From an uncultured SAR86 cluster bacterium (GTDB taxonomy: Bacteria; Pseudomonadota; Gammaproteobacteria; Magnimaribacterales; D2472): a stretch of DNA of 59,089 nucleotides. Where the stretch lies: positions 1 through 59,089 of the forward strand of contig CABXPU010000004.1 in assembly GCA_902514105.1 (NCBI GenBank). Reading direction: 5' to 3'. The translations under genes were made by a program, and so were the position numbers. The notes under the pieces are model-generated. The model ran no database searches, was not told the origin of the DNA, and saw nothing but the letters and a program-made list of their open reading frames with translations. This document shows, piece after piece, positions 38,019-59,089 of the stretch. Numbering within the stretch: the stretch's first letter is position 1; the number at the start of each line of letters is the position of its first letter.

Positions 38019-38027
38019 ATATTTTCT

Positions 38028-38945
38028 ATGTTGCTTATTTTCTTAAAGAGGGTTTTAGCAGCAATACCTGTTTTAATAATTGTAGCTAGTTTAACTTTCT
38101 TTTTTGTAAGACTTGCGCCTGGTGGGCCTTTTGATTCAGACAGAGCTGTCTCCCAAGAAGTCTTGATCAATTTACAAGAGGCGTATAACTTAAACGCTCC
38201 TTTATCAGAACAGTATTTTGATTATATGTCTGGAGTATTGGTAGGTGATTTTGGTCCCTCATTTAGATATCCTGGAAGAAGTGTCTCTGAAATGATTTTT
38301 ACAGGCTTGCCTGTTACTTTAGAGTTAGCAGTTTATGCAATTTTAATAGCACTTTGTGTTGGAATATTTTCTGGAGTTCTAGCTGCTTTAAAACGAAATA
38401 CTTTTTTAGATTTTATTCCTATGGCTATAGCTATGATTGGAATATGTGTTCCAACTTTTCTTATGGGCCCTTTACTAGTATTAATCTTTGGTATTAATTT
38501 AGAGTTATTACCAGTATCTGGTTGGGATAATTTACCTGGAGACAAGATCCTGCCATCTATAACATTAGGTTTTGCTTATGCGGCATATATAGCCAGATTA
38601 AGTAGAGGGGGTATGTTAGAAATTTTAGGACAGGATTTTATCAGAACAGCTAGAGCAAAAGGCCTATCTGAAAGAGCAGTAGTAACTAAGCATGCAATGC
38701 AGGGTGGATTAATTCCAGTTGTTTCTTTCCTAGGACCAGCTGTTGCAGGATTATTAGCAGGCTCGTTTGTTGTGGAAACAATTTTTCAAATACCTGGACT
38801 AGGTAGGTTTTATGTTGAAGCAGCTTTTAATAGAGATTACACCATGATTCTGGGAACAACAATTTTCTTTTCTGCAATGATAGTATTCTTTAATCTCTTA
38901 TCTGATATGGCTGTTATGTTATTCAATCCTAGGGCAAGGGATTAA
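38028..38945 (+). CDS. oppB: Peptide ABC transporter permease
   Basis: APGGPFD, GDFGPSF, FIRTARAKGL, IFQIPGLG, NRDY. Confidence 0.9.
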   Translation: MLLIFLKRVLAAIPVLIIVASLTFFFVRLAPGGPFDSDRAVSQEVLINLQEAYNLNAPLSEQYFDYMSGVLVGDFGPSFRYPGRSVSEMIFTGLPVTLELAVYAILIALCVGIFSGVLAALKRNTFLDFIPMAIAMIGICVPTFLMGPLLVLIFGINLELLPVSGWDNLPGDKILPSITLGFAYAAYIARLSRGGMLEILGQDFIRTARAKGLSERAVVTKHAMQGGLIPVVSFLGPAVAGLLAGSFVVETIFQIPGLGRFYVEAAFNRDYTMILGTTIFFSAMIVFFNLLSDMAVMLFNPRARD

Positions 38946-38947
38946 TC

Positions 38948-39799
38948 ATGGATAACTCAAGTTTATGGAATGATGCATACAGAAGATTAATCCAAAATAA
39001 AGCTGCAATGATTGGAGGCTTGATCTTAATTTTACTTATTTTCTGCGCCATTCTAGCTCCCTTAATAGCACCATACTCATATTCATATCAAGATTTAAAT
39101 CTTGGTGCATCAAAACCATCTTGGGATCACCTTCTCGGAACAGATGTTATGGGTAGGGATTTATTAAGCAGAATCCTATACGGCGCTAGGATTTCATTAA
39201 TGGTAGGTTTTGTTGCTACAGGAGTAGCTTTGGTTATAGGTGTTTCATGGGGAATAATTGCAGGTTATTTTGGAGGAAGAGTAGATTCGATAATGATGAG
39301 AATAGTGGACGTACTCTACGGACTGCCTTTTATTATTTTTATAATACTTCTAATGGTTATCTTTGGAAGAAATTTATGGCTTTTATTTGGAGCTATAGGA
39401 GCTGTTGAATGGTTAACAATGGCAAGAATTGTTCGAGGACAAGTAATAGGATTAAAGAATCAAGAATTTGTTTTAGCAGCTCAAGCAATGGGCGTTAGCA
39501 ATATGTCGATGTTTAGAAAACATTTATTTCCAAATATATTAGGACCCATTGCAGTTTATGCAACCTTGACCATTCCACAAGTTATGCTACTTGAAAGCTT
39601 TTTAAGCTTTCTAGGTCTTGGCATTCAGCCGCCTATGAGTAGCTGGGGAACTCTAATTAAGGATGGAGTTGAATCCATGGAGGAATATTCATGGCTACTA
39701 ATCTATCCAGGATTAACTTTTACAATAACACTATTTGCACTTAATTTTTTCGGTGACGGCCTAAGAGATGCTTTAGATCCAAAAACTTCGAGCGACTAA
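38948..39799 (+). CDS. oppC: Peptide ABC transporter permease
   Basis: LGTDVMGRD, GARISL, EFVLAA, FLSFLGLG, GDGLRDALDP. Confidence 0.9.
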   Translation: MDNSSLWNDAYRRLIQNKAAMIGGLILILLIFCAILAPLIAPYSYSYQDLNLGASKPSWDHLLGTDVMGRDLLSRILYGARISLMVGFVATGVALVIGVSWGIIAGYFGGRVDSIMMRIVDVLYGLPFIIFIILLMVIFGRNLWLLFGAIGAVEWLTMARIVRGQVIGLKNQEFVLAAQAMGVSNMSMFRKHLFPNILGPIAVYATLTIPQVMLLESFLSFLGLGIQPPMSSWGTLIKDGVESMEEYSWLLIYPGLTFTITLFALNFFGDGLRDALDPKTSSD

Positions 39800-44725: not shown

Positions 44726-47700
44726 ATGAAACACACTAAATATTTATTATTAATACCAGCGATTCTATCGTTTAACTTATTTGCTCAAGATGCAGATGCC
44801 GATTCTTCAAATGTTGAAGAAATTGTTATTGTCGGTTCTCAAATTAAAGGAGCTAAAATTACCGGCGCACTTCCTGTATCTATTATCACTTCTGATGATA
44901 TTGAAGGTCTTGGAATTGAGTCTGGTGAAGAGCTTATGCAAAGTATTGCTGAAAATGGATCAAATAACTTTAACCAAACAGATTTTAATGGTGGTTATAA
45001 CGCCAATAGGGGTGACGTGGGTGCACTGGATCTAAGAAACATTGGAACAGGAAACACAGTTACACTTTTAAACGGAAGAAGAATAGTTAACGCGCCCGGT
45101 TATGCAACTGAGTGGGTTGGCGGAAGTTATGTTCCAGTATCAAGTGTTAACTCTAATGTTATTCCTGTATATGGAGCTGAAAGAATTGAGATTCTTCGTG
45201 ATGGAGCTTCAGCGATTTATGGTGCTGATGCTGTAGCCGGTGTTGTAAACACAGTTCTTCAAGATGATTATGAAGGCATGACTGTAAGACTAAGAACTAA
45301 TTGGTATGACAGCTTTGCTGCAAATGATGATAAAGCTAGCATTCAATGGGGCTTTAACTTAAGTAGCGGAATGAATGTATCTGTTTACTTCGATCATTAT
45401 GATCGAGGCAGAATCAGAGCAAGTGAAGACCCTAAGTGGGCCAATGGTGATTTAAGAAGATTACTCCCATCTCCAGATGATGGTGGCCTAGGTGAGTTTA
45501 ATGATACTACCTGGAGAAACCAAAGTGCTTCAAGCCCATGGGGACAATTCTACGAAGGCAGTAATATATTTAGTATTTATAGAGCTGATGATTCATATTG
45601 CTCACCATATTATGATGGTGATGCAAGCACTTCCCCAAGTTCATCAAATTTCTATTACATTCCTGGACAAAGTCATATGTGTATGTATGACGCATCTTCT
45701 ATTAGAGGTGAAAACAGAGTTAATTATGGACAGTGGATGGATAAAAGAGGAAAACTGTCTCGAGACAACATTCTTGTATTTTTAAACAAAGAGCTTGAAA
45801 GCGGTACTGAGTCATATACTGAAATTGGTATGTATATGTCTGAAACTAACCGTGTTCTTTATCCAGGCACCATGCTAGGTTCAGGTAGTTCTACTAAAAA
45901 TGGTGGAGGAACTCAGCCAATGGAGATTCCTTCAACTAACTATTGGTTAAACCAATTAAGACAAGCAGACGGAGATCTATTTGTTGATGAAGAAGGCGAT
46001 GTCTTGTATGCAAGATATTTCAGATTTAATACTCCTCGTGGTTATGACTCTAGAAGAGAAACATTTAGATTTGTAAAAGGATGGAGGGGAGAAAATGGTG
46101 CATGGGATTGGGATACTGCATTTGTTTGGTCACAGGCTAATTCAGAAATGGATAACTTTGGTAGAGCTAATATGAATGCACTAGATGCAGCTTTAGCGCT
46201 AGACACTCCTGATGCTTATAACCCATTTTGTGCAACTGTAGGTTGTAATGAAGAACAATTCATGATGACAATTTTTAGAAACAATTCATCACATCTATAT
46301 ATGTGGGATTTCAAAATGTCTAATCCATCTGTATTCAGCTTACCTGCAGGAGATGTTGGTATGTTATTTGGAGCGGAAGTTAGAAGTGAAAAAATGAATG
46401 ATGAAAGAGACCCTAATATCAATGGAACTATTCCTTGGACTACTGTTAAAGGTGTAACTTTCCCATACGTTTCAAACGTAGCTAACTCAAGCCCATCTCC
46501 CAATACAAAAGGATCAAGGCTTGTTACTTCAGCATTTATGGAAATGCAGATTCCATTAATGGAAAACATGGATGCTCAGTTTGCTGTTAGAGGTGAAAAT
46601 TTTGATGATATTGATGACACCACTGTTGTAGGTAAATTTGCAATAGGTTATCAGCCAATTGATGAGATTAAGTTAAGAGCTTCAACCTCAACTTCTTTTA
46701 GAGCGCCTAATCTTATAACTGTAAACGAAGGCCTTATTGCTAGAAGTAATACACAAGAAGATCCTTTATACACTTATGCAGTTGGAGAAAATTATAATAA
46801 TTATTCAATCCAAAGGGTTGCTCAAGGTAATAAAGATCTAAAATCAGAAGAAGCAACAAATACTTCTATTGGTATAATTTTAATGCCTGGAGAGCAATTC
46901 CCAGTGTTGGATGGTTTAGTCATAACTTTTGATAAATGGACTATTGATACAGAAAATACAATAGGACTATTTGGTGAAAGAAACCATATGTTACTTGATA
47001 CTTTAATTAGAGCCCAAGGTGGAGCTAGCGAATGTGTTGGTAACCCACTAGTTGTTCGTGGTGATTTCCAAGGAGCAGAAGATGGCGACGGCAATCCTTT
47101 AACTTGGAATCCAAATCTTTGTGAGGCTGGTCAAGTTATTAGAGTTATGGATACATACGTAAACTTAGATGATAGAAATATGGCTGGTACTGATATAGCT
47201 GTTCAATATTCTAGAGATACTGATGTTGGTAAGTTCGGAGCTAAATTTACACTTGTATCATACGATGAGTTTTTACAAGAGCCTGGTGCTAAGAGTCAGA
47301 TGTTAATTGACGCTGTTCAGCCTGGAGGTGAATTAGAAGGATTGATTGCACCTGCTGGCTATGGTGATTTAGTTGGTACTTTTGGTAGACGTGCTTATCC
47401 TGAAGAGAAATATACTGGTAGCATTTCATGGAGACATGGTGGTTGGTCAGCTTATCTAACCGGCACACTAATCGGTGAATTCTTTGAAACTGGTGTTACA
47501 GATAATGCTAAGAACTCCGATGGTAATTATGCATGTTCAGGAACCACATCATGGTCTGGTGATAATTGTGGTGACTTCTGGCTTGTAGAGTCAATGTTAA
47601 CTTTAAACTTCAGCTTGTCTTATAAGTTCAGAAATGGCTTAAGATTAAAAGGTCAAGTTAGAAACTTTGAAGATACAAGAGCTCCATTGGCTGATGAATA

Positions 47701-47776
47701 TACATGGGGTTATGTTGGTGATGTTCATCAAGACTACGGTAAAAGTTATGTACTTGAACTTTATAAAAAGTTTTAA
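44726..47776 (+). CDS. TonB-dependent receptor
   Basis: Signal peptide, EEIVIVGS TonB box, plug motifs LLNGRR and RIEILRDGASAIYGADAVAGVVN, FRAPNL, C-terminal Phe. Confidence 0.95.
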   Translation: MKHTKYLLLIPAILSFNLFAQDADADSSNVEEIVIVGSQIKGAKITGALPVSIITSDDIEGLGIESGEELMQSIAENGSNNFNQTDFNGGYNANRGDVGALDLRNIGTGNTVTLLNGRRIVNAPGYATEWVGGSYVPVSSVNSNVIPVYGAERIEILRDGASAIYGADAVAGVVNTVLQDDYEGMTVRLRTNWYDSFAANDDKASIQWGFNLSSGMNVSVYFDHYDRGRIRASEDPKWANGDLRRLLPSPDDGGLGEFNDTTWRNQSASSPWGQFYEGSNIFSIYRADDSYCSPYYDGDASTSPSSSNFYYIPGQSHMCMYDASSIRGENRVNYGQWMDKRGKLSRDNILVFLNKELESGTESYTEIGMYMSETNRVLYPGTMLGSGSSTKNGGGTQPMEIPSTNYWLNQLRQADGDLFVDEEGDVLYARYFRFNTPRGYDSRRETFRFVKGWRGENGAWDWDTAFVWSQANSEMDNFGRANMNALDAALALDTPDAYNPFCATVGCNEEQFMMTIFRNNSSHLYMWDFKMSNPSVFSLPAGDVGMLFGAEVRSEKMNDERDPNINGTIPWTTVKGVTFPYVSNVANSSPSPNTKGSRLVTSAFMEMQIPLMENMDAQFAVRGENFDDIDDTTVVGKFAIGYQPIDEIKLRASTSTSFRAPNLITVNEGLIARSNTQEDPLYTYAVGENYNNYSIQRVAQGNKDLKSEEATNTSIGIILMPGEQFPVLDGLVITFDKWTIDTENTIGLFGERNHMLLDTLIRAQGGASECVGNPLVVRGDFQGAEDGDGNPLTWNPNLCEAGQVIRVMDTYVNLDDRNMAGTDIAVQYSRDTDVGKFGAKFTLVSYDEFLQEPGAKSQMLIDAVQPGGELEGLIAPAGYGDLVGTFGRRAYPEEKYTGSISWRHGGWSAYLTGTLIGEFFETGVTDNAKNSDGNYACSGTTSWSGDNCGDFWLVESMLTLNFSLSYKFRNGLRLKGQVRNFEDTRAPLADEYTWGYVGDVHQDYGKSYVLELYKKF

Positions 47777-47789
47777 TTTATAAATAACT

Positions 47790-47820
47790 ATAAAAAGGGA
47801 GCTTAGGCTCCCTTTTTTAT
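47790..47820 (+). terminator. Rho-independent terminator after the TBDR
   Basis: AAAAAGGGAGC-TTAG-GCTCCCTTTTTT. Confidence 0.92.
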
Positions 47821-47848
47821 TTAAATCAAATTTCTATATAATATTTTA

Positions 47849-49564
47849 ATGCGATACCTAATCCTATCTTTCCTGTTAATTGTAAATACAGTTGATGCCC
47901 AACAAAGCTATATTGATTACCGCTCACCATTTCATCCTGTAGTTTCATCAGAAGGTATGGTGGTTTCTCAAAGTTACCTATCATCAGATATTGGCATTGA
48001 GATTCTCAATAAAGGTGGCAATGCAGTAGATGCAGCAGTTGCAGTTGGTTTTTCATTAGCTATAACTTTACCAAGAGCAGGCAATATAGGTGGAGGCGGT
48101 TTTATGCTTGTGTATCTAAAAGAGCAAGAAGAAATATTCTTTATTGATTACAGAGGTAAGTCACCGTTAAATTCAAATATTAAAGATTTATTTAACACAA
48201 ACTTACCAAAAGATTACAAAAAAACAGATTTTAATAAATCAAGGTTTGGTTATAAAGCTTCAACTGTTCCAGGAACAGTAGCTGGGCTTATTGATGCTCA
48301 TACTAATTTTGGAAAACTACCTCTTTCTCAGGTTTTAGAACCTGTTATTAAACAAGCCGAAGAGGGAATAATTGTTTCATATGATTTAAGTAAAGCAATT
48401 GAAAGTAGCAAACAGCTGCTTAAAGACCCTGAATCAAAAAGCATTTATTTTAAAGATGGCAAGCCTCTTCAAGAGAATTCTCTAATGAAGCGCCCAGATC
48501 TAGCAAATACTTTGCGCCTAATAGCTAAGAATGGAACTAAAGGTTTTTATGAGGGTGAAACTGCTAGGAAATTTATTGAGGCAATGGAAGATAATAACGG
48601 CTTTATGGTCAAAAAAGATCTTAAAGATTATAAAATTAATTCAGGTGCGCCTATTGTATCTTTGTATCGAGGTAATCCTGTTTTTACCGCAGGCCCTCCG
48701 TCAGGTGGAGGAGTAGTTCTATTAACTGCATTAAATATCTTAGGAAAATATAAATTTAATAAAGCAGATAGCAATTCAACAAGGACTTATCATTTATTAG
48801 CTGAATCACTAAGACGAGGACATAACAACAGATCTCATCATGTCGGTGATCCTAATTTTTATGATGTACCTATAGACCAATTAATATCAAAAGAAAGAAC
48901 AAACGAACTTCAAAAAAATCTTAAATTTAAATCTGCTACACCTAGTGATAATGTAAAACCATTATCTGTTGTAAATGAAAGCAGAGATACAACTCATTAC
49001 TCTATTATTGACTCAGATGGTAATGCTGTATCAAATACCTATACGCTGGGATATTCTTTTGGTTCAGGTGTAACTATTCCCGGAACAGGTGTATTAATGA
49101 ATAATCAAATGAATAATTTTGCTTATAGATATGGCGATACATCTATTGTAGGAAGAGCGGCCAGTCCAGCTAATAAATTTTCACCTGGAAAGAGACCAAT
49201 GAGCACAATGGCTCCGACAATGGTCTTTAATAAAAAAGGGCAGTTAATTCTTATTACTGGTTCACCAGGCGGCTCGTTTATTCCAGCAGCTGTATTAAGA
49301 GTTGTTAGTGGCGTTATTGACTTTGATTTAAATATTGGTGAAGCAACCATGCTGCCTCGCATACATAAAGATTGGCCTTATGCAGGATTAGATTATGAAT
49401 CTACATTAAGTTCAGATATTTCCAATCAACTAGAATATATGGGTCATCAACCTGAACGTCAAAAAACAATGGGAAGCACGCAGAGTATTCATATTATAGA
49501 TGGAATTAATTATGGATATGCTGACCTTAGAAGGCCTAATGCAGGGGTATCAAGGCAAAGATAA
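47849..49564 (+). CDS. ggt: Gamma-glutamyltransferase-family Ntn hydrolase (atypical active site)
   Basis: GGNAVDAAVA, GGGGF, VPGTVAG, PPSGGG, autoprocessing D-TTHYS, KRP.S.M.PT, GSPGG; signal peptide. Confidence 0.9.
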   Translation: MRYLILSFLLIVNTVDAQQSYIDYRSPFHPVVSSEGMVVSQSYLSSDIGIEILNKGGNAVDAAVAVGFSLAITLPRAGNIGGGGFMLVYLKEQEEIFFIDYRGKSPLNSNIKDLFNTNLPKDYKKTDFNKSRFGYKASTVPGTVAGLIDAHTNFGKLPLSQVLEPVIKQAEEGIIVSYDLSKAIESSKQLLKDPESKSIYFKDGKPLQENSLMKRPDLANTLRLIAKNGTKGFYEGETARKFIEAMEDNNGFMVKKDLKDYKINSGAPIVSLYRGNPVFTAGPPSGGGVVLLTALNILGKYKFNKADSNSTRTYHLLAESLRRGHNNRSHHVGDPNFYDVPIDQLISKERTNELQKNLKFKSATPSDNVKPLSVVNESRDTTHYSIIDSDGNAVSNTYTLGYSFGSGVTIPGTGVLMNNQMNNFAYRYGDTSIVGRAASPANKFSPGKRPMSTMAPTMVFNKKGQLILITGSPGGSFIPAAVLRVVSGVIDFDLNIGEATMLPRIHKDWPYAGLDYESTLSSDISNQLEYMGHQPERQKTMGSTQSIHIIDGINYGYADLRRPNAGVSRQR

Positions 49565-51004
49565 TTAGTTTCTATAATTAAGAGGCGGTAGCCTATCACC
49601 TAATAAAGCCTCATAAACAAAATCATCACCAATTCTAGAATTTAATTCATTATTTGCTTCTTTAATAAGTTGAGGGTTCTCAAACAATTCTATTATAGTT
49701 GCACTCAATGTTTTAGCTGCAAGCTCTGCACCCTTTAATCCAATTGAAGTCCCACCAGATGAAACTGCTTGCCAAGAATGTGCAGGAGTTCCTGGAACCC
49801 AACTAGCAATTCTCACTCCAGCAGTAGGGACATTCCAACTAACATCTCCAACATCTGTAGACCCATAACTATGTGACTTTTTATAAGGTCTAATATTTTC
49901 CTGGGATCCTATTTCTCTATCTGGATTAATAAATGATTTATATAGCTCTTTTGCATAATCCTCTTCTTCTTTTGAATATTTAATGCCACCAAATTCAGAT
50001 AATTTCTGATGAACTATTTTTTGCAATATTTCGTTTGGTAATAAAGAATAATTTCCATGCATAACTTCATAAGTCATAGAAGTTTCTGTTCCCATTGCTG
50101 CAGCTTGAGCTATTGTTGCAACTCTATTAAATAATTCTTCTACTCGTTTCATTTCAGGATGGCGAACGTAGTAATAGACTTGAGCTAAATCAGGAACAAC
50201 ATTAGGAGCTAATCCCCCTTTGGTAATGACATAATGGATTCTTGATGATTGAGGAATATGCTCTCTCATCATATTAACCATCATGTTCATTGATTCAACT
50301 CCATCAAGAGCAGACCTTCCTTCATCAGGCGATCCAGCTGCGTGCGCAGCAATACCTTTAAAAGTAAATTTAGCGGATTTATTAGAGTTATTTGTTGATG
50401 AGTTAGCTGAATTATTGTCATCAGGGTGCCAATGCAATACAGCATCAACGTCATCAAATAAACCTGCTCTTACTAAATAAACTTTCCCAGACCCTCCTTC
50501 TTCTGCTGGAGTTCCATAAAATCTAATAGTTCCTTTAATATTATTTTTTACTAACCATTCCTTGATTGTTACAGCAGCCCAAGCTGAAGCAGCTCCAAAT
50601 AGATGATGGCCACAGGCTTGTCCAGCTCCAGTAGAATTATTAACAACCTCTTTAAATGGTGATTTAGATTGAGCTAAGCCGGGCAGGGCATCGTATTCAC
50701 CTAATATCCCGATAACAGGACCACCATTAGAATATTCAGCTATAAATGCAGTAGGTATTCCTGCAACACCTTTAGTTATAGTAAAACCTTCTTTCTTTAA
50801 TTCACTGCTAAGTATGTTCACACTTTCAGTTTCTTGGTATCCCATTTCAGCTAAATCCCAAAGGTCTAGCGCTACTTTTTCGAATTGATTTTTATGATTT
50901 TGTATGCTGCTCTGCAGATCAAAGGCTAATACCTGATTAGTAATGCTTGAGATTATAATTAAGCTAAATAATTGTCTTTGAAATTTACTAGTTTCCCAAC
51001 CCAT
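49565..51004 (-). CDS. M20 amidohydrolase, AbgB-like, with signal peptide
   Basis: [42 protein letters not shown]. Confidence 0.88.
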
Positions 51005-52410
51005 TCTTCTTCTCCCATATTTTGGATTATCTTTTTATCATAAGATATTATTACTTTTCTTGCTCTATTTAAATCCTCTATGTAGATAACCGCTTTTTTA
51101 TTATTAACATCATTCTTAGGTAAAACCGTATACCCCAAAACTTTTCCTGCACCCTCCTTTAAATTGGATAGAGGTATTGGTTTTTCTATTTTTTCAGCTT
51201 CATTAGTAACATCTTTTGATACAAAATTTATGAATGGTTCTTTTGCCCATAATGCAAAAGATTGCTTGGTCATCATTCCAGATACACCTGTTACAAGCCC
51301 AATTTTATTTGAATCTTTTTTAATATCCTTAAGAATCTTAACAGTAGACTGAATTACAAAATGATTTAATGGTCCTCCAGCAAATGGCATGCCGCCTGTA
51401 GATGTAAGATTAGAATTTAGATCTAGATTTAAAGAGTCTGCAAACATTTGAACAGCAACAGGAAAACAACTATAAACCTCGAATGTATTTGGCTTAATGT
51501 TATGTTCTTTGCATATATTTAAAATAAAATCTGCCGCCAACTGAAGACCAGTTGGTTTAATAATATTAGGTCTTTGAATAGCAGCAATCATATGGTTTGT
51601 CTCAGATGAAGCTAGCGGGTATAACCTATTTTTTTGAGGAATATTTAAATCATTAGCTAATTCTTCACTACATAAAATCATTGCAGAGGCTTGATTAACA
51701 TTCCAGCTAGCACAATGAAGTTTATTGTAGGGTAATGCTTGCATTGGGTTTTTATCGCTCTCATTTGAAATATTTTCCCAATCAAGAGGATTAGCAATCC
51801 AACCATCGTCATTTAAGGCAGCAATCTTTGAAAAATCTGAATATAACTTACCTATTTTTTCTTTATGTGAGTCAATCTTTAAATTTTTAGTTTTTCTTAA
51901 AGCGCTCTCAAGAATTGCATAATAACCAACAGCCATTAGACCAAGTGCATCTTCTTCTTCTTTTATATGAAGATCATCTTTTGCTTTAACATAATGATCT
52001 GGATTTATATTTAATTCAGTTTCTTGATACTCTTTCTTTTCTATTAAAGCTCTAATTCTTTTAAATCTTGCTTCACCACCAACTATTAATGAAGCCCTAA
52101 TTTCACCATTTTTAATTTTATTGCACGAACTGTTAATAAGATTTTGTTGCAGTACACCAATTTTGGTTACGCTTGTTTTAGCATCAGGAAAGCCATTGCG
52201 TTTTGCTATCCATTTCCCTGGATCTCTATATTTCCAGTAACCTTTTGGGATTTGTACTTCATCAATATATTTTGATATCTGTTTTGAGGAGGAATCATTA
52301 ATAGCTTCTTGGGTAGCTTTTTCCATTAAGATTAAAGCTTCATCTAAATCTTTAAAATTACCTTTTTGTTGTAATGATCCTATTCCAACAACAACCGGCC
52401 TATTTTTCAT
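50959..52410 (-). CDS. Thiolase-like protein (TLP1 type)
   Basis: [26 protein letters not shown] motifs plus an extra C-terminal domain. Confidence 0.75.
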
Positions 52411-53460: not shown

Positions 53461-56322
53461 ATGAATAAATTATTAAATCTAAAAGGTTTACTAGCTGCTT
53501 CATTGATTTTCTTTGTTTCATTTTCAAACGCTGAAGATGCAACATCAGGAACTCTAGAAGCTATTGTAGTAGACCAATCCGGTACGGCTATTGCTGGGGC
53601 CTCTGTTTCTGTTGAATCATCTGATACAGGTGTAACAAGAAGCGGAACTTCTGGCGCAGATGGATCTATAAGATTCCCGCTGTTAGCTATCGGGTCGTAT
53701 GATGTTGATGTTTCCGCTAGTGGATATAGTTCAATTGCAGATAATATTGCAGTTAGACTAGGAAACTCGGATTATCAATTTGTCCTTGAAAGCGCTTCAG
53801 GTTCTATGGAAGAAATTCTTACAACTGCTGGTGCAATTCAAGCGATTGATTTTGACTCAACAACTACTGGTATTTCAATTGATGTAGATGAATTAATCGC
53901 AAATACACCAATTAATAGATCTCTAACTAGTTTGGTGCTTTTAGCTCCAGGTACTTCAGCTGGTGATTCAGCTTTTGGAAGCCTTGCTTCTATTAGTGGT
54001 TCATCTGTTGCTGAAAACGTATATCTAGTTAATGGTCTTAATATTACCAACTTCAGAAATTTCACAGGTTCATCAAGTGTTCCTTTTGAATTTTATGATG
54101 TAGTTGAAGTTAAAACAGGTGGTTACCAAGCTGAATTTGGTAAAGCTATTGGTGGTGTGGTTAACGCAGTTACTAAGAGTGGAACAAATGATTGGCATGC
54201 TGGCGTTAATGTTAGCTATTATCCAGATAGTTTCTATCATGATAAGCCAAATACTTATACTCAGCTTAATGATCTAGATACTAGAGACTATATGGAATAT
54301 AACGTTTCAGTTAGTGGTCCTATCATTCCTGATAGAGCTTTCTTCTATATTCTAGCTAACCCAGTTGATAATGAAACTTCTAACACAAACGTTTCTGGAA
54401 CAAGATACGATGCTAGCTTAAAAGATGATTTCTTTGGAGCTAAGTTAGACTTCTATATCACAGATGACATTCATTTAGAATATACATATTTTAATGATGA
54501 TTCTGTTGGTACAACTTTATCATATAGCACTGCTGATGGTTCTCAAATCGGTACAGCTTATGACAACGTTGGTGGAGACAATGAAATATGGAAACTATCT
54601 GCAGTTTTAACTGACAGATTAACTGCTGCAGTTACTATGGGTACTAATGAGTACGAAAGAACTGCTTCAGGTACAGGTGATGCATGTCCATGGGTTTGGT
54701 GGCCTTATCCAACAAACAGACCTGGTTGTGCAACTAGTGGAATTGTTTCATCAGGAACTGACGAAAGAGAAATCTTTAAATTTGATGTAGATTACTATAT
54801 TGGTAAGCACCATTTCAGATTTGGTATTGAGAATGAAGACTTAACAGCTTCTGATCAATCTAACTATTCTGGTGATGTTTATTACCGTGGTTATGATGAT
54901 GACGGCGACGGCACTATTGAAGCTGGCGAAACTGTTAGAATCAGAATCTACAGAAGTGGTGGTACTTTCGATGTCACTCAAGAAGCTTTCTATATGCAAG
55001 ATAGTTGGGATGTAAGTGATAAGTTAAATCTAAACCTTGGATTTAGAAGATCAACATTTGACAACAAAAATGCAGCTGGTCAGACTTTTGTTAAGACAGA
55101 AGATCAAGACGCGCTTAGAATTGGTGCTACTTACGATATCGTAGGTGACGGTTCTAAGAAATTGTACTACTCATTTGGTGAATACTATCTACCTATAGCA
55201 GCTAATACTAATATTAGAATGGCTGGTGGTGAATTCTATTCATACCAATTCTGTGAGTGGGATGGAACTAATGGTGGCGGAAGCTTTACTGAAGTTGGTG
55301 TAACTAATTGTGGTGATATTGGCTACTATGCAGACGGTTCTGTGCCTGACACAAGAAGTTTAACTGATACAAATCTTAAGCCTATGTATGGTGAAGAAAC
55401 TATTATTGGTTATTCACAAGTTCTTGAAGGCGGTACATTTGATGGATGGGACTTTAATGCATACTATGTTCAAAGAGAGCTAGCAACAACTATTGAAGAT
55501 GTTGCGATTGATGCTGCTGTGAACGCTTGGTGTGCTGCTGGTAACGGTTATGCAACAGGTTGTGCAGCCTTTACTGGATTCCATCAGTATGTTGTAACTA
55601 ACCCTGGTAATGATATGAATGTATATCTTCCAGAGTTTGATCAATATGTAGATCTTTCTGCAGCTGATCTTAACTACCCAAAACCAATTCGTGAATACGA
55701 TGGTTTCACTCTTGAGCTTGAAAGAGCATGGGACGGTGACTGGGCATTAAGACTTGCTTATACTAATTCTGATACAGTTGGTAACTATGAAGGAACTGTT
55801 AAATCTGATAACGGTCAAGACGATGCGGGTATTACCCAAGACTTTGACCAGCCTGGTTTAACTGACGGTAGTTACGGTAAACTTCCAAATCACAGAAAAC
55901 ATATATTTAAAGCTAATGGTTCAAAAATGTTAGCTAATAATCTTGTTGGTGGTTTGAATATGTCTGTAACTTCACCTAGATACTTTGGTTGTATCGGTGA
56001 GCATCCAACTGATGTTTATGCAGCAGCTTATGGTGCTTCTTCATGGTACTGTAATGGTGTATTAACTTCTAGAGGATCTATTTCTCAGAGTGCATGGGTC
56101 ATCCAATTGGATGCACTTCTTGCTTGGAATCCACCAGTTGCTAACGGTGATCTAACTCTAAGAATGGATGTATTTAACCTTCTGGATTTAGACGCTATTA
56201 CTGATATCAATGAGTATGGTGAAGATGGTGGTGGAGTAGGTTCTATGGATACTAATTATCTTAGACCAACTAACTATCAGACTGCTAGAAGAATTAGATT
56301 TGGAGCTTCTTGGAGGTTCTAA
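53461..56322 (+). CDS. TonB-dependent receptor, Oar-like, with N-terminal carboxypeptidase-regulatory-like domain
   Basis: Signal peptide, VVDQSG..IAGASV, LAPG, EVKTGGYQAEFG..IGGVVNAVTKSGTN, terminal WRF. Confidence 0.93.
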   Translation: MNKLLNLKGLLAASLIFFVSFSNAEDATSGTLEAIVVDQSGTAIAGASVSVESSDTGVTRSGTSGADGSIRFPLLAIGSYDVDVSASGYSSIADNIAVRLGNSDYQFVLESASGSMEEILTTAGAIQAIDFDSTTTGISIDVDELIANTPINRSLTSLVLLAPGTSAGDSAFGSLASISGSSVAENVYLVNGLNITNFRNFTGSSSVPFEFYDVVEVKTGGYQAEFGKAIGGVVNAVTKSGTNDWHAGVNVSYYPDSFYHDKPNTYTQLNDLDTRDYMEYNVSVSGPIIPDRAFFYILANPVDNETSNTNVSGTRYDASLKDDFFGAKLDFYITDDIHLEYTYFNDDSVGTTLSYSTADGSQIGTAYDNVGGDNEIWKLSAVLTDRLTAAVTMGTNEYERTASGTGDACPWVWWPYPTNRPGCATSGIVSSGTDEREIFKFDVDYYIGKHHFRFGIENEDLTASDQSNYSGDVYYRGYDDDGDGTIEAGETVRIRIYRSGGTFDVTQEAFYMQDSWDVSDKLNLNLGFRRSTFDNKNAAGQTFVKTEDQDALRIGATYDIVGDGSKKLYYSFGEYYLPIAANTNIRMAGGEFYSYQFCEWDGTNGGGSFTEVGVTNCGDIGYYADGSVPDTRSLTDTNLKPMYGEETIIGYSQVLEGGTFDGWDFNAYYVQRELATTIEDVAIDAAVNAWCAAGNGYATGCAAFTGFHQYVVTNPGNDMNVYLPEFDQYVDLSAADLNYPKPIREYDGFTLELERAWDGDWALRLAYTNSDTVGNYEGTVKSDNGQDDAGITQDFDQPGLTDGSYGKLPNHRKHIFKANGSKMLANNLVGGLNMSVTSPRYFGCIGEHPTDVYAAAYGASSWYCNGVLTSRGSISQSAWVIQLDALLAWNPPVANGDLTLRMDVFNLLDLDAITDINEYGEDGGGVGSMDTNYLRPTNYQTARRIRFGASWRF

Positions 56323-56339
56323 GTTTTAATTAACTTGTT

Positions 56340-56369
56340 AAAGGGGTGCTTTTGCACCCCTTTTTTTTT
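56340..56369. terminator. Terminator between the TBDR and the convergent tauD-like gene
   Basis: AAAGGGGTGC-TTTT-GCACCCCTTTTTTTTT. Confidence 0.9.
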
Positions 56370-56370
56370 G

Positions 56371-57222
56371 CTAGATTTTTAAAGGAGTTTCACCAGCTAA
56401 CGTTATTCTGTGCATCAATCTCTCATGGCCATCATAACCACCTTCAGCCATATGCATAACACTTCTGTTGTCCCACATAATTAACATATTAGGTTTCCAT
56501 GAATGGCGGTAAATATATTTATCTTGCAACATATGCTCAAACAATTCTGAAAGTAAATTAAAAGCATCGACTTCACTCATGCCTTCAACACCAATTGTAT
56601 AAACGGGATTTATAAAAAGTGATTTTCTTTTAGTATCTTTATGAACTCTGACTAATGGATGAAGGTAGGCTTCATTAGCCTTGTTTGAAGGTTTTATTTT
56701 TAAAGTTCGTTTTTCATTTTCTAATGCATAAAATCCATCTTTAGCATAGGGAAGTTTTGCACTGTGAAACGCATTTAAACCCTTAACCTTTTCTTTAAGC
56801 TCTAATGAAAGTTCATCATATGCTAAGGCAGTATTTGCAAAGAGGGTATCTCCTCCAACCGGGGGAACTATCTTTGAATGCAGCATCGTGGCTGAAGGTG
56901 GTGACTCTTGAAAAGACCAATCAGAATGCCAAGTGCCTCCAAAGGGTGAAGAAGTTTCATTAGCTTTTCTTCTTAGTTCCACTATATGTGGTTGTGATTT
57001 CATTGTTCCTATATAAGGCTCACTCCCATACGAACCAAATTGTTTAGCAAAATCTGCATAAGAATTATGATCTAACTTTTGGTTGGGGAAAATAGCTACG
57101 TAATTATTAACCCATAAATTATGAATTTCATTTATAACATCATTATTTAAAGGTTCTGATAAATCTACGCCTGTGATTACAACGCCAATATTTGATGAAG
57201 ATTTAGAAGTCTTAAATTCCAT
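56371..57222 (-). CDS. TauD/TfdA-family Fe(II)/2-oxoglutarate dioxygenase
   Basis: WHSD (HxD), GGDTLFA, HPLVRVH, WDNR..MH, R.MHR. Confidence 0.92.
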   Translation of the reverse strand: MEFKTSKSSSNIGVVITGVDLSEPLNNDVINEIHNLWVNNYVAIFPNQKLDHNSYADFAKQFGSYGSEPYIGTMKSQPHIVELRRKANETSSPFGGTWHSDWSFQESPPSATMLHSKIVPPVGGDTLFANTALAYDELSLELKEKVKGLNAFHSAKLPYAKDGFYALENEKRTLKIKPSNKANEAYLHPLVRVHKDTKRKSLFINPVYTIGVEGMSEVDAFNLLSELFEHMLQDKYIYRHSWKPNMLIMWDNRSVMHMAEGGYDGHERLMHRITLAGETPLKI

Positions 57223-57409: not shown

Positions 57410-59089
57410 ATGTTTAGAAATAAAATATTTTCAGCCGCTCTAGTAATAATCCTTTTATCAGGGTGCGGTGGCGGTGGAGGAGGAGGGAGTACTACTCCAA
57501 CTGAACCAACTCCAACTGCAAGCCTTTCCTCTTCATCATCTTCAGTTTTATTAGACTCAATTGTTACTTTAACTTGGTCATCTACCAATGCTACATCTTG
57601 TTCTGCTTCTGGAGCTTGGACTGGTAGTAAAGGTACAAGTGGTTCTGAGGATGTAACTATTGCAACTCCAGGCAATAATCAATTTACTATTACGTGTTCA
57701 GGAGCTGGTGGTTCACAAGCAACTTCTGTTACTGTTGAGGGTTATAGAAACACCGATGGTGTTTCGGTAGATGGCTATATTCGTCAAGCTGAAATCTTTA
57801 TTGATATCAATGATTCTTATACTGCTGATTCGGGTGAAGATACAACAACTTCGGATAATGATGGAAAATTTACCATCAAATACTCTGATGGAAATTTGAT
57901 TAGTTTAGGTGGAACCGATCTTGACTCTGGGAATGCCTTAGATAATCTTTTAATTGTTCATAAGCTGACTGGTCATTCAAATTTTAAAGCGGTTACCCCT
58001 GTAACTTCAGTTGCTGCCTTTATGGTAGATTCATCTTTAGTCAATGCAGCACTTGGAATTGATGATTCGCTTGATATTGCTACTGTTGATCCTGTTGCCG
58101 GCAAAGGTGATGGTGGAATCAATGATTATCTTTATGAGAAAGGTAGTCAGCTCACAGTCTTAGCTTATGCATTACAAAATATTACCAATAACCTAAATAC
58201 CACAACCGAAACCACCCAAGATTACTTTAAAGCTATAGCTGAAGAAACAGATACAGAATATGCAGCAACTACTCTCAAGGTAGATATTGAAACTGAAGCT
58301 TTTATAACCAAAGTTATTGATAACATTATTACTGCTAAGGCTTTAACTGTAGCTGAAGAGGCAAGAGTAAATCTTATCTCAGCATTATCTTCAGTGATGC
58401 CAGTTATTGAGGTTAAATCCTCAGATACACTTTCTACTGCAGTTTTTGATTTTGCAACCAGTACCTTGCAAACAGATGCACAAGCATTAGCTAACGGAAC
58501 AGCAACTGCAGAAATTATTTCAAGCTATCAATCAGATGTTCTTAACTATATAGCAACCGATCAGGATGTAGATGCTGATGAGCTAGCTCCTGACATAACT
58601 GCTATAGCAGATGAAGCCAGCCTTGATGAAGATGAAAGCGTTGATATTAATCCACTTTCTAATGATTCATATTTAACATCAGCGCCTATTAGTGTTGTCG
58701 CAGCCAATGGTGCTAGCGGAGTAACATCAGTTTCAAATAATATAGTCACTTATTCACCTGATGCTGATTTTAATGGTTCTGATGCCTTTGATTACACCAT
58801 TACCCAAGGCGACAAAACCTCATCGGCTAATGTTACTGTCACGGTTAACGCAGTAAATGATGCACCCACTTTTGATAATCTACTTTCAACTTATAGTGTT
58901 TCTGAAAATCAAACTGCCATTACTACTGTTGCTGGCTCTGATGTAGATGAAGATGCTTTAACAATTGCCTTAAGTGGAACAGATGCAGCAAGTTTTAATC
59001 TTTCTAGTTCAAATGTTTTAACTTTTGTCGAAGCACCTGATTATGAAACTAAAAATAGTTATGCAATAACTTTATCTGTTAGCGATGCA
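57410..59089 (+). CDS. Large surface lipoprotein/adhesin with Ig-like, Big_9/tandem-95-like and cadherin-like repeats (3' end outside window)
   Basis: Manual translation: MFRNKIFSAALVIILLSGC-GGGGGGG lipobox; TLTWSSTNATSCSASGAW; VDGYI; TYSPDADFNGSDAFDYTI...VTVTVNAVNDAP; APDYETK. Open to the window end. Confidence 0.88.
   Translation, partial: MFRNKIFSAALVIILLSGCGGGGGGGSTTPTEPTPTASLSSSSSSVLLDSIVTLTWSSTNATSCSASGAWTGSKGTSGSEDVTIATPGNNQFTITCSGAGGSQATSVTVEGYRNTDGVSVDGYIRQAEIFIDINDSYTADSGEDTTTSDNDGKFTIKYSDGNLISLGGTDLDSGNALDNLLIVHKLTGHSNFKAVTPVTSVAAFMVDSSLVNAALGIDDSLDIATVDPVAGKGDGGINDYLYEKGSQLTVLAYALQNITNNLNTTTETTQDYFKAIAEETDTEYAATTLKVDIETEAFITKVIDNIITAKALTVAEEARVNLISALSSVMPVIEVKSSDTLSTAVFDFATSTLQTDAQALANGTATAEIISSYQSDVLNYIATDQDVDADELAPDITAIADEASLDEDESVDINPLSNDSYLTSAPISVVAANGASGVTSVSNNIVTYSPDADFNGSDAFDYTITQGDKTSSANVTVTVNAVNDAPTFDNLLSTYSVSENQTAITTVAGSDVDEDALTIALSGTDAASFNLSSSNVLTFVEAPDYETKNSYAITLSVSDA

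Follow-up and report, generated by a model that had tools for sequence, protein, structure and literature searches.

The gene at positions 47849..49564 (plus strand) of the window, by which we mean the whole stretch of 59,089 nucleotides analysed here, encodes a GGT-family protein that has likely lost recognition of the substrate α-amino group and serves a role other than glutathione cleavage; we put the probability of this reading at about 0.7. As judged from its sequence, the product is probably an exported, self-processing Thr-nucleophile amidase acting on five-carbon acyl groups that bear an α-carboxylate and no free α-ammonium group. Since the residues gripping the amine are lost and the gene is accompanied by a receptor gene of its own, the variant probably cleaves a different acidic amide.

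The open reading frame has exact bounds at 47849 and 49564, the opposite strand being rich in stop codons, and codes for 571 amino acids. Its N-terminus, MRYLILSFLLIVNTVDA|QQ, looks by eye like a Sec signal peptide (approximately residues 1-17). The match to PF01019 is full-length (residues 51-563 against profile positions 2-511 of 512, E 1.1e-150), which places the protein in the GGT family (MEROPS T03 Ntn hydrolases). Its score against the TIGR00066 equivalog model is 498.9 bits (cut-off 357.85), and that against PRK09615, the E. coli-type equivalog, is 448.5 (cut-off 990). The closest solved relative is E. coli Ggt (2DBU/2DBX/2E0W; E 7e-116 to 2e0w), with 39% identity over 532 aligned columns. 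The AlphaFold2 model (pLDDT 90.4, pTM 0.90) is predicted to have the α-β-β-α Ntn fold, with 2e0w as the top Foldseek match (E 3.2e-47, target-normalised TM 0.92), and the residues of the predicted self-cleavage site, D380-T381, are present. The variant is like the E. coli enzyme in fold, signal peptide, Thr nucleophile, oxyanion glycines, carboxylate ligands and lid-loop length, whereas it differs in several pocket residues, in scoring below the PRK09615 cut-off and in that its gene follows one for a TonB-dependent receptor.

Pocket residues were mapped by HMMER pairwise alignment and by MAFFT with the translation of E. coli K-12 ggt (E. coli numbers in parentheses; all coordinates on the plus strand). 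The catalytic and autoprocessing nucleophile T381 (T391; 48989..48991), its partner T399 (T409) and the oxyanion-hole glycines G474-G475 (G483-G484; 49268..49273), that is, the complete catalytic set of a GGT, are kept and are invariant in 25/25 clade sequences. According to the part of PMC8062742 available to us, the α-carboxylate is bound in the E. coli enzyme by R114, S462 and S463 and the α-amino group by N411, Q430 and D433, with Tyr/Phe444 as a gate paired with N411. The carboxylate ligands are represented by R102 (in R102-G103, E. coli R114-E115; 48152..48157) and S452-T453 (S462-S463; 49202..49207), with Ser replaced by Thr at 463. On the other hand, two of the three α-amino ligands (N411, Q/E430, D433) are replaced: Asn411 is Gly in T399-L400-G401 (T409-L410-N411; 49043..49051), and both Asp are Asn in Q420-M421-N422-N423 (Q430-M431-D432-D433; 49106..49117), of which Q420 is retained. 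The aromatic lid residue is also lost, being V434 (Y444; 49148..49150) here and V/E/S/R/I/L/K/T within the clade. The alignments bear out what the preliminary description had read by eye, namely the kept nucleophile and carboxylate ligands, TYTL-G at N411, NNQM-NN-F at D432/D433, and Val at the Y444 position. A further change, E115 to G103, was absent from it.

The substitutions are shared by a whole lineage. A FastTree phylogeny of 96 rows places the variant in a 27-row clade (support 100), and a quick IQ-TREE analysis of 50 rows recovers it as 26 rows (SH-aLRT 99), nested among canonical proteobacterial GGTs. NNQMNNF and TYTLG each occur in 119/120 of the closest database clusters, P0019 being the sole close homologue (1/120) with Asp at 433. 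Over the 27 rows of the first tree's clade, the residue at 411 is G in 23, S in 3 and T in 1, position 433 is N in 26 and I in 1, and position 463 is T in 24, S in 2 and N in 1. Comparison of 20 core-clade rows with 197 rows of the N411/D433 type gave eight diagnostic changes (E115 to S/G, N411 to G, E430 to Q, D433 to N, S463 to T, I488 to P, F209 to Y and D55 to N), with Glu at 115 in 197/197 of the latter and 0/20 of the former. Column statistics, used as an approximation to a three-dimensional compensation check, indicate loss of acidic residues at 115, 430, 432 and 433, the sole clade-wide acidic gain being at position 186 of the large subunit; an acidic side chain that compensates in the folded protein is still conceivable. 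Since both trees recover the clade in which these changes have become fixed, chance drift does not account for the pocket pattern. Of 31 related genomes, 25 were found to carry the variant. A metagenome scan with clade member P0127 gave 44 loci, all at ≤40% identity, with the N433 signature in 0/45 GGT open reading frames, and thus added no gene contexts, and a genome-collection scan with the clade alignment, in which generic patterns were used, gave the N433 type in 4/67 extracted ones.

Gene neighbourhood provides a second line of evidence. The first gene of the module encodes a TonB-dependent receptor of 1016 amino acids (TBDR1; 44726..47776, plus strand) with Plug and TonB_dep_Rec_b-barrel domains. 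Its orthologues (E<=1e-60) are found in 26/31 related genomes, comprising 25/25 holders of the variant and 1/6 non-holders, where the match is weak and partial. In 14/14 context loci the receptor gene lies directly upstream of the variant gene, or of a DASS symporter gene followed by it, and the receptor-variant pair is kept in a Caulobacter MAG (receptor match 332 bits). Such a receptor gene adjoining that of an exported hydrolase, conserved across genomes, is the arrangement of a TonB-linked uptake locus. The gap between the two genes is 72 bp long and contains a palindromic G+C-rich hairpin flanked by runs of A and T (47792..47817), a site that we infer to act in a terminator-like manner; an RNA-library contig (X9, 47707-47969) spans it.

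An inner-membrane partner is suggested by the relatives. A di/tricarboxylate symporter of the DASS type adjoins the variant gene in 21/25 holders; it matches PF00939, scores 294 bits against TIGR00785 (cut-off 198.6) and, among proteins of solved structure, is most similar to VcINDY and to the human carriers of citrate and dicarboxylates. In this window no inner-membrane transporter gene lies between 47776 and 47849, and the single DASS orthologue of this genome is on another contig (C25), away from the module. The symporter also occurs in the four family-f3 genomes without the variant, and the DASS motifs that were examined do not discriminate between substrates. Its adjacency in 21/25 holders fits an acidic product that is amine-less or N-blocked. 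Receptor, symporter and variant are kept together in genomes of approximately 1 Mb, in three of the order's four families.

Downstream, and convergent with the variant gene, lies a gene for an M20D-type amidohydrolase of 479 amino acids (49565..51004, minus strand; TIGR01891 250.7 bits, cut-off 153.75). The solved structures closest to it are those of HmrA (3ram), Xaa-Arg dipeptidase and an aminobenzoyl-glutamate utilisation protein. Its N-terminus resembles a signal peptide, basic and then hydrophobic, in 8/8 orthologues inspected. The gene is near the module in 9/10 family-f1 context loci (absent in L055) and stands in a row with it on the same strand in G014 and G015. It overlaps by 46 bp the gene of a thiolase-like protein of 483 amino acids (50959..52410, minus strand), which lacks a signal peptide, has no Pfam match and scores far below the cut-offs of the PRK08257-type acetyl-CoA acetyltransferase models. 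The two genes are paired in 8/10 family-f1 loci, L058 having the M20D gene only and L055 neither; whether the thiolase-like protein is part of the receptor-GGT system is uncertain. The E. coli abgABT system is similar in having an M20D-family component and, as one clade member in another MAG has its gene after that of an AbgT-family transporter, in this transporter as well; N-acyl-glutamate as a transported intermediate may, by analogy, be a common theme. Unlike the present module, abgABT contains neither a GGT nor a TonB receptor, and the M20D protein of this window seems to be an exported one.

The following sequence of events may be proposed. Conserved adjacency suggests that TBDR1 would import an acidic compound with an amide bond to the periplasm, where the retained R102, S452 and T453 would bind its distal carboxylate. 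By the chemistry of the family, T381 would attack the amide carbonyl, with G474/G475 as the oxyanion hole, and water would free the acyl part. The variant would hydrolyse its substrate without transpeptidation, as judged from the E. coli D433N mutant, which lost transpeptidation while keeping 82% of its hydrolytic activity and gaining GL-7-ACA acylase activity (PMC8062742, available part). The acidic product could then cross the inner membrane through the DASS symporter, encoded next to the variant in most relatives and elsewhere in this genome, and glutathione cleavage would be left to a canonical paralogue.

The nature of the amide is less certain. The donors of the B. anthracis enzyme CapD (3G9K) are N-acylated γ-glutamyl compounds, and its pocket is marked by a small side chain at 411, Q430, an amide residue at 432 and N433, the pattern that the variant displays. 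In two alignments CapD has S411, Q430, Q432 and N433 where the variant has G, Q, N and N, and the motif NNQLQNF where the variant has NNQMNNF; the likeness rests on these four positions. Otherwise the proteins are only remotely similar in sequence (E 1.5e-40 for one CapD chain, 9.9e-11 for the other): CapD keeps E115, has T462-F463 and is without a lid loop, whereas the lid loop of the variant is of E. coli length. CapD is, moreover, a Gram-positive surface enzyme, a poly-γ-D-glutamate transpeptidase and depolymerase, and the variant is an exported protein. As CapD forms a long branch far outside the variant clade, the likeness of the pockets is convergent. The part of a review available to us describes CapD donors as γ-glutamyl units with an acylated α-amine. 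By analogy, we tentatively favour N-acylated or internal γ-glutamyl bonds as substrates, and oligo-γ-glutamates, pteroyl- and p-aminobenzoyl-polyglutamates or wall peptides of the L-Ala-γ-D-Glu type may be among them. It is a more speculative proposal that the clade as a whole is a natural periplasmic hydrolase of N-blocked, internal γ-glutamyl bonds, the CapD-convergent core of a receptor-enzyme-symporter pathway. If this were true, a bacterial group among the most abundant in the ocean would harvest γ-linked glutamyl compounds from dissolved organic matter, for example peptidoglycan stem peptides, folyl- or p-aminobenzoyl-polyglutamates or oligo-γ-glutamates, which canonical GGT cannot attack, and these compounds would have a sink that has so far escaped notice.

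The preliminary description had instead proposed a periplasmic amidase for glutaryl or other dicarboxylyl amides. The amidase part is supported by export, the full catalytic set and clade-wide loss of amine ligands beside a canonical GGT, whereas no finding singles out glutaryl amides as what it cleaves. An acylase for amides without any α substituent (glutaryl, 2-oxoglutaramyl or citryl amides, for example), which would set free an acid to be taken up (glutarate, 2-oxoglutarate or one of the citrate type), is nested within our main reading and is possible, if somewhat doubtful. The statement that D433N turns E. coli GGT into a glutaryl-7-ACA acylase is indeed found in the available part of PMC8062742, and this single change sufficed. 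The engineered E. coli and B. subtilis GL-7-ACA acylases described there resemble the variant in Asn433, in Gln430 and in the absence of Tyr444, Gln430 together with Asn433 matching E442Q/D445N of an improved B. subtilis mutant. The loss of negative charge at 115, 430, 432 and 433 and the similarity of the adjacent DASS protein to citrate and dicarboxylate transporters are also in keeping with such an activity. However, the improved B. subtilis enzyme is E423Y/E442Q/D445N, in which E423Y puts Tyr at the 411 position (PMC8062742, available part), as in the 2NLZ lineage, where the variant has Gly; the variant also keeps G484, has additionally lost E115 and D432, and belongs to a natural conserved clade rather than to laboratory mutants. 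That removal of the Y444 side chain improves the activity could be followed only partly, as the gain of up to 50-fold reported in the same part of that source belongs to the triple mutant D433N/Y444A/G484A, from which the effect of Y444A itself is not separable. In Helicobacter bilis an active canonical GGT is accompanied by Bgh1, a paralogue with a natural D433N change, for which neither self-processing nor γ-GT or GL-7-ACA activity was observed (PMC3279353). Furthermore, a TonB-dependent receptor suggests a ligand larger than a simple glutaramate, the neighbouring genes point to no natural glutaryl-amide substrate, and the nearest pocket signature is that of CapD. The clade also supplies naturally occurring parents from which to develop glutaryl or N-acyl-γ-glutamyl amidase biocatalysts, hitherto obtained by mutagenesis.

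Class IV cephalosporin acylases also have Asn at the 433 position (PMC8062742, available part), as does the B. halodurans protein 2NLZ. Membership of the variant in this lineage was ruled out: the 2NLZ lineage has S114, Y411, R430 and H462-T463 where the variant has R, G, Q and S-T, and the match to 2nlz (E 1.5e-51) is inferior to that with E. coli GGT (7e-116).

Less probable still is that the variant remains a γ-glutamyl or glutathione hydrolase, restricted to hydrolysis, of lower affinity or of broader range, which feeds the cell with glutamate and Cys-Gly. The hydrolysis retained by D433N means that γ-glutamyl hydrolysis by the variant is conceivable, and, taken together with Q420, the carboxylate ligands and the score above the TIGR00066 cut-off, it makes a hydrolysis-only enzyme with a weaker grip on the amine possible. 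The M20-family peptidase next door could cleave the dipeptide left after glutathione hydrolysis, and in three of the 31 related genomes (G014, G021 and G030) no canonical GGT copy was seen. These arguments are opposed by the joint loss of four acidic positions around the amine site across a deep clade, by a canonical paralogue kept alongside in 22/25 holders, and by the class of the neighbouring carrier, since DASS anion symporters are not among the types known to carry glutamate. With seawater glutathione in the nanomolar range, as cited in the available part of PMC3358033, a weakened grip on the amine would presumably also be costly.

It is very improbable that the variant is a non-catalytic or unprocessed protein, such as a periplasmic binding protein for the ligand of the receptor, for which Bgh1 is a precedent: the invariant catalytic residues and strong sequence conservation across the clade oppose it, and Bgh1, inactive and of an unrelated lineage by its published description rather than by sequence comparison, is without the signal peptide that the variant has.

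A canonical GGT was found in 28/31 related genomes and in this one, where a fragment on contig C47 is 76-81% identical to same-genus canonical GGTs. In four family-f2 genomes (G019 included) variant and canonical genes are tandem neighbours. A third class in the relatives consists of 2NLZ-type orthologues (E 2e-126 to 2nlz), which form the outgroup in both trees, so these small genomes hold up to three GGT-family classes with a glutathione-type pocket in one only. A SAR86 origin of this genome is suggested by its 32% G+C, its size of about 1 Mb, numerous TonB receptors and marine sources. SAR86 genome papers count ggt genes toward glutathione scavenging (PMC3358033 and 10.1101/2024.03.17.584874, available parts), and the preliminary description had warned against arguing from such annotations. 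The warning is justified in that counts of GGT paralogues overstate glutathione scavenging; it does not overturn the argument itself, which survives because the canonical paralogue is also present, and glutathione scavenging by this bacterium remains plausible. Paralogue-resolved annotation of ggt therefore changes how the evidence for scavenging is read, although the conclusion survives here. Retention of receptor, symporter and enzyme in genomes of such small size suggests that seawater contains some abundant acidic amide that has yet to be named.

A promoter scan gave 12 promoter-like sites, fewer than the 22.1 in shuffled sequences. In three studies, contigs of RNA libraries extend over the 5' portion of the variant gene (about 47707-48153), coverage that may include DNA carry-over, and a short piece lies at 49085-49139; contig depth cannot rank the genes. 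The idea that citryl or 2-oxoglutaramyl amides of siderophores are the substrate was considered and found unsupported, its sole hint coming from the C. crescentus GGT gene CC_0984. This candidate gene, of unestablished GGT class, was 2.68-fold down on iron limitation.

The open reading frame, opposite which the reverse strand is closed by stop codons, lies at 47849-49564 (+), in agreement with the coordinates of the preliminary description; it encodes 571 residues and starts with what looks by eye like a Sec signal peptide. The GGT Pfam family matches the whole protein (E 1.1e-150). With 498.9 bits the protein clears the cut-off of 357.85 set for TIGR00066, a broad NCBIfam equivalog, but its 448.5 bits with PRK09615, the model of E. 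coli type, stay under the 990 required there. Among solved structures, E. coli GGT 2e0w is the closest (E 7e-116), and structural comparison agreed with the proposed homology, as an AlphaFold2 model made with 25 clade sequences as input (pLDDT 90.4, pTM 0.90) had its best Foldseek superposition with the precursor of E. coli GGT (E 3.2e-47, TM 0.92). Residues were numbered on the E. coli K-12 ggt sequence and mapped by HMMER pairwise alignment and a 205-row MAFFT alignment, which were concordant. Retained, with the E. coli number first, are R114=R102, T391=T381, T409=T399, Q430=Q420, S462=S452 and G483/G484=G474/G475; altered are N411 to G401, D432 to N422, D433 to N423, Y444 to V434 and S463 to T453, as well as E115 to G103, a change absent from the preliminary description. 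According to the accessible text of PMC8062742, the alpha-amino group is bound by N411, Q430 and D433, and the alpha-carboxylate by R114, S462 and S463.

These alterations are widely shared. NNQMNNF was found in 119 of the 120 protein clusters closest to the query, which are 76-100% identical to it, and TYTLG likewise in 119. The lone case with Asp at 433 (NNQMNDF, Gly411 kept) is P0019, a 79% identical homologue from a single contig. The main alignment comprised 53 GGT reading frames from 30 related genomes, E. coli GGT and the best 150 matches among representatives of 50%-identity clusters of a 1.8-billion-protein library; 67 further reading frames were added from a genome-collection scan. 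Three GGT classes occur among the relatives, with the following signatures at E. coli positions 114, 391, 409, 411, 430, 432, 433, 444, 462, 463, 483 and 484: RTTNEDD[FY]SSGG in the canonical class, RTTGQ[NRYSK]NxSTGG in the class of the query and STSYRE[ML]-HTGG in the third. A FastTree phylogeny was built from 96 rows: E. coli GGT, 45 canonical rows picked at random, four third-class rows as outgroup and, at lengths of 500-700 residues, every row that was N433, odd or of the B. subtilis type; 16 fragments or fusions were dropped. There the query belongs to a clade of 27 rows with support 100, of which 26 have Asn433 and one has Ile, and this clade sits within the canonical proteobacterial GGTs, close to that of E. 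coli. A quick IQ-TREE search, whose 50 rows comprised 26 from the clade (a near-duplicate was omitted), 16 labelled canonical, four B. subtilis-type, three third-class and CapD, gave the clade an SH-aLRT of 99; the diagnostic columns, 8 of about 585, were retained in the tree alignments. The subfamily suspected earlier thus forms one clade in both trees and, judged from sequence, is a conserved subfamily and not a degenerate copy.

Comparison of 20 core-clade rows with 197 N411/D433-type rows gave eight diagnostic positions: E115 to S/G, N411 to G, E430 to Q, D433 to N, S463 to T, I488 to P, F209 to Y and D55 to N, of which only columns other than 411 and 433 are independent evidence, these two having defined the comparison group. 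Glu at 115 is present in 197/197 rows of the latter and 0/20 of the core clade, and Glu at 430, found in 93% of the canonical group, is Gln in the core clade. By a charge-class test, the clade has lost acidic residues at 115, 430, 432 and 433 and, further off in the sequence, at 450 and 521. It has gained one throughout at a single position, 186 (D179 in the query; the E. coli protein bears an Asp at 185), with weaker gains at 202, 362, 524 and 545. Charge statistics over alignment columns, which are not three-dimensional, revealed no compensating acid, since position 186 lies in the large subunit, whose sole residue in the donor pocket is Arg113/114 (PMC8062742, accessible text).

The variant coexists with canonical paralogues. 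When matches in 31 genomes, the window's own included, were assigned to classes, the variant was found in 25 (17/19, 4/4, 0/4 and 4/4 in families f1 to f4 of the order), the canonical GGT in 28 (18/19, 4/4, 4/4 and 2/4) and the 2NLZ-like class in 12 (7/19, 1/4, 0/4 and 4/4). Completeness is 80% and 67% for the two f1 genomes that lack the variant, and the canonical type was not found in three of the 31 (G014, G021, G030). The window's own genome (68% complete) bears a second GGT at the end of contig C47, of which 209 N-terminal residues remain; R-E at 114/115 and 76-81% identity to canonical GGTs of the same genus indicate that the organism has both types. In all four f2 genomes (G022, G025, G028, G019) the two genes stand in tandem. 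At one locus of the same genus (L161, G004:C2:206300-209300) the variant lies in two frames, as an N-terminal part and a 302-residue C-terminal part, and the adjoining receptor match is likewise broken in two; either decay or a fault in the assembly could account for this.

In the window, 72 bp separate the variant from the upstream gene of a 1016-residue TonB-dependent receptor, TBDR1 (44726-47776 (+)). This gap (47777-47848) contains a perfect hairpin with an 11-bp stem flanked by A5 and T5 runs (47792-47817), whose sequence resembles that of a bidirectional terminator or attenuator, and, unlike in most relatives, no DASS gene. Counts of gene context come from kin genomes and are not independent events: the receptor adjoins the variant, or DASS plus variant, in 14/14 longer loci of relatives, and 11 of these loci have an intervening gene of about 478 codons, which often overlaps the GGT start. 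Its product is a DASS sodium-coupled anion symporter (PF00939, E 2.8e-76; TIGR00785, 294 bits against a cut-off of 198.6), with human citrate and dicarboxylate carriers and VcINDY as best solved relatives. DASS adjoins the variant in 21 of 25 holders (with one 1.3-kb gap and one pair split by a contig end), is located elsewhere in three (the window's genome, G009 and G010) and is unplaced in G001. In G009 and G010 it follows a different TonB receptor gene and precedes a DUF4886 gene. In the window's genome the single orthologue (69% identical; contig C25, L070:213-1652) begins 212 bp from the contig start, with no receptor visible, and precedes DUF4886, amidohydrolase and PhzF-like genes. TBDR1 was detected at E<=1e-60 in 25/25 holders and in 1/6 non-holders, there as a 37% partial match; DASS is not exclusive to the module, because four f3 genomes have it without the variant. 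Outside the order, a clade member from a Caulobacter MAG (RTTGQNNK) directly follows a TBDR1 orthologue (332 bits), and one from a Pseudomonadota MAG (YTTGHGN) directly follows an AbgT-family transporter gene. Two genera have an extra gene of about 286 codons between receptor and DASS (L056:11940-12803 (-), L057:6783-7640 (+)); its G016 copy has a weak, below cut-off likeness to PHB-depolymerase-type esterases (E 1.3e-07). In f1, an M20D-type amidohydrolase gene (TIGR01891, 250.7 bits against 153.75) is near the module in 9/10 loci, with a signal-peptide-like N-terminus in 8/8 inspected orthologues, and a thiolase-like gene accompanies it in 8/10; in G014 and G015 receptor, DASS, variant, M20D and thiolase-like genes form one same-strand row.

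Nucleophile, oxyanion hole and carboxylate clamp are intact in this exported protein of GGT fold, amine-binding and neighbouring acidic residues have been lost clade-wide, a canonical paralogue coexists with it, and its gene is conservedly linked to that of a TonB receptor and, in most genomes, to that of a DASS carrier. The most likely mechanism would involve import of an acidic amide by the receptor, its hydrolysis by the variant through an acyl-Thr381 intermediate, and uptake of the acidic product through DASS. The variant would act without transpeptidation, because E. coli D433N loses this activity (PMC8062742, accessible text). We consider it probable, at about 70%, that its substrate lacks a free alpha-ammonium group. 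Against this stand the 82% of hydrolysis that D433N retains according to the same text, the score above the TIGR00066 cut-off, the absence of DASS from the window, and H. bilis Bgh1, a natural D433N paralogue described, in the part of PMC3279353 available, as inactive and unprocessed.

Among such substrates, N-acylated or internal gamma-glutamyl bonds are an attractive candidate, to which we would give somewhat less than even odds. In poly-gamma-D-glutamate, the alpha-amine of each donor gamma-glutamyl unit is held in an amide bond. This polymer is the substrate of CapD (PMC8062742, accessible text), whose sequence, taken from pXO2 and aligned in two ways, reads S/Q/Q/N at 411/430/432/433 (NNQLQNF), where the query has G/Q/N/N (NNQMNNF) and E. 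coli N/Q/D/D. The CapD-like pocket, the room made by Gly at 411, a receptor suited to larger ligands, and M20D and AbgT neighbours recalling p-aminobenzoyl-glutamate handling all point this way, and the tandem canonical GGT could finish from a free N-terminus. However, the CapD likeness amounts to four residues and is convergent, as CapD lies far outside the clade in the IQ-TREE phylogeny; unlike the query, CapD keeps E115, has T-F at 462/463 and is without the lid loop.

The preliminary description favored amides of diacids devoid of an amine, and acylase results for E. coli D433N, which it cited, and for D433N/Y444A/G484A are indeed reported in PMC8062742 (accessible text). We give this version slightly lower odds than the N-acylated or internal gamma-glutamyl bonds. 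The acylase direction takes position 411 to Tyr, as in 2NLZ and, according to the same text, in the B. subtilis mutant E423Y, whereas the query has Gly. Membership of the query in the 2NLZ lineage was rejected, its 2nlz match reaching only E 1.5e-51. It is the third class that is orthologous to this B. halodurans 'cephalosporin acylase' (E 2e-126), with S114, Y411, R430, E432, M/L433 and H462-T463, at loci L022, L025, L026, L029, L032, L033, L037-L041 and L043 in 12/31 genomes; G030 has two more fragments of a related 'TSFR' type.

In the full-text literature covered (few subscription journals, no supplements), we found no description of the receptor-DASS-GGT module or of the variant clade. 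A GGT subfamily study from 2015 used 47 sequences and, in its accessible text, leaves position 433 unmentioned (PMC4568574), and two SAR86 genome papers, as far as their accessible text goes, treat ggt as a glutathione marker with paralogues not separated (PMC3358033; 10.1101/2024.03.17.584874). The enzyme family and the logic of the uptake locus are already known; this literature does not describe the pocket, how it is conserved or which partners it has.

In four marine RNA libraries from four studies, contigs 95-99% identical cover the 3' part of the receptor gene, and three runs also reach into the first approximately 300 bases of the GGT gene (X1, 47885-48153; X5, 47927-48089; X9, 47707-47969), the X9 contig spanning the hairpin; this is presence in RNA libraries, not proven transcription. 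On the minus strand, downstream of fabI, the thiolase-like and M20D genes share 46 bp (50959-51004 (-)), suggesting that they are transcribed as a single unit, convergently with the GGT gene. The stretch 36408-39799 encodes two Opp/Dpp-type permeases and a family-5 solute-binding protein, with no ATPase genes beside them; these genes are syntenic with the locus in several relatives (L056, L057, L066) and may be of the type that has been called a 'putative glutathione transporter' in SAR86. The stretches 53461-57222 and 57410-59089 encode a further large receptor of TonB type, which has a CarboxypepD_reg domain, together with a TauD-family dioxygenase and a cadherin/Big_9-repeat protein that runs off the window end; only genomes of the same genus keep them beside the locus.
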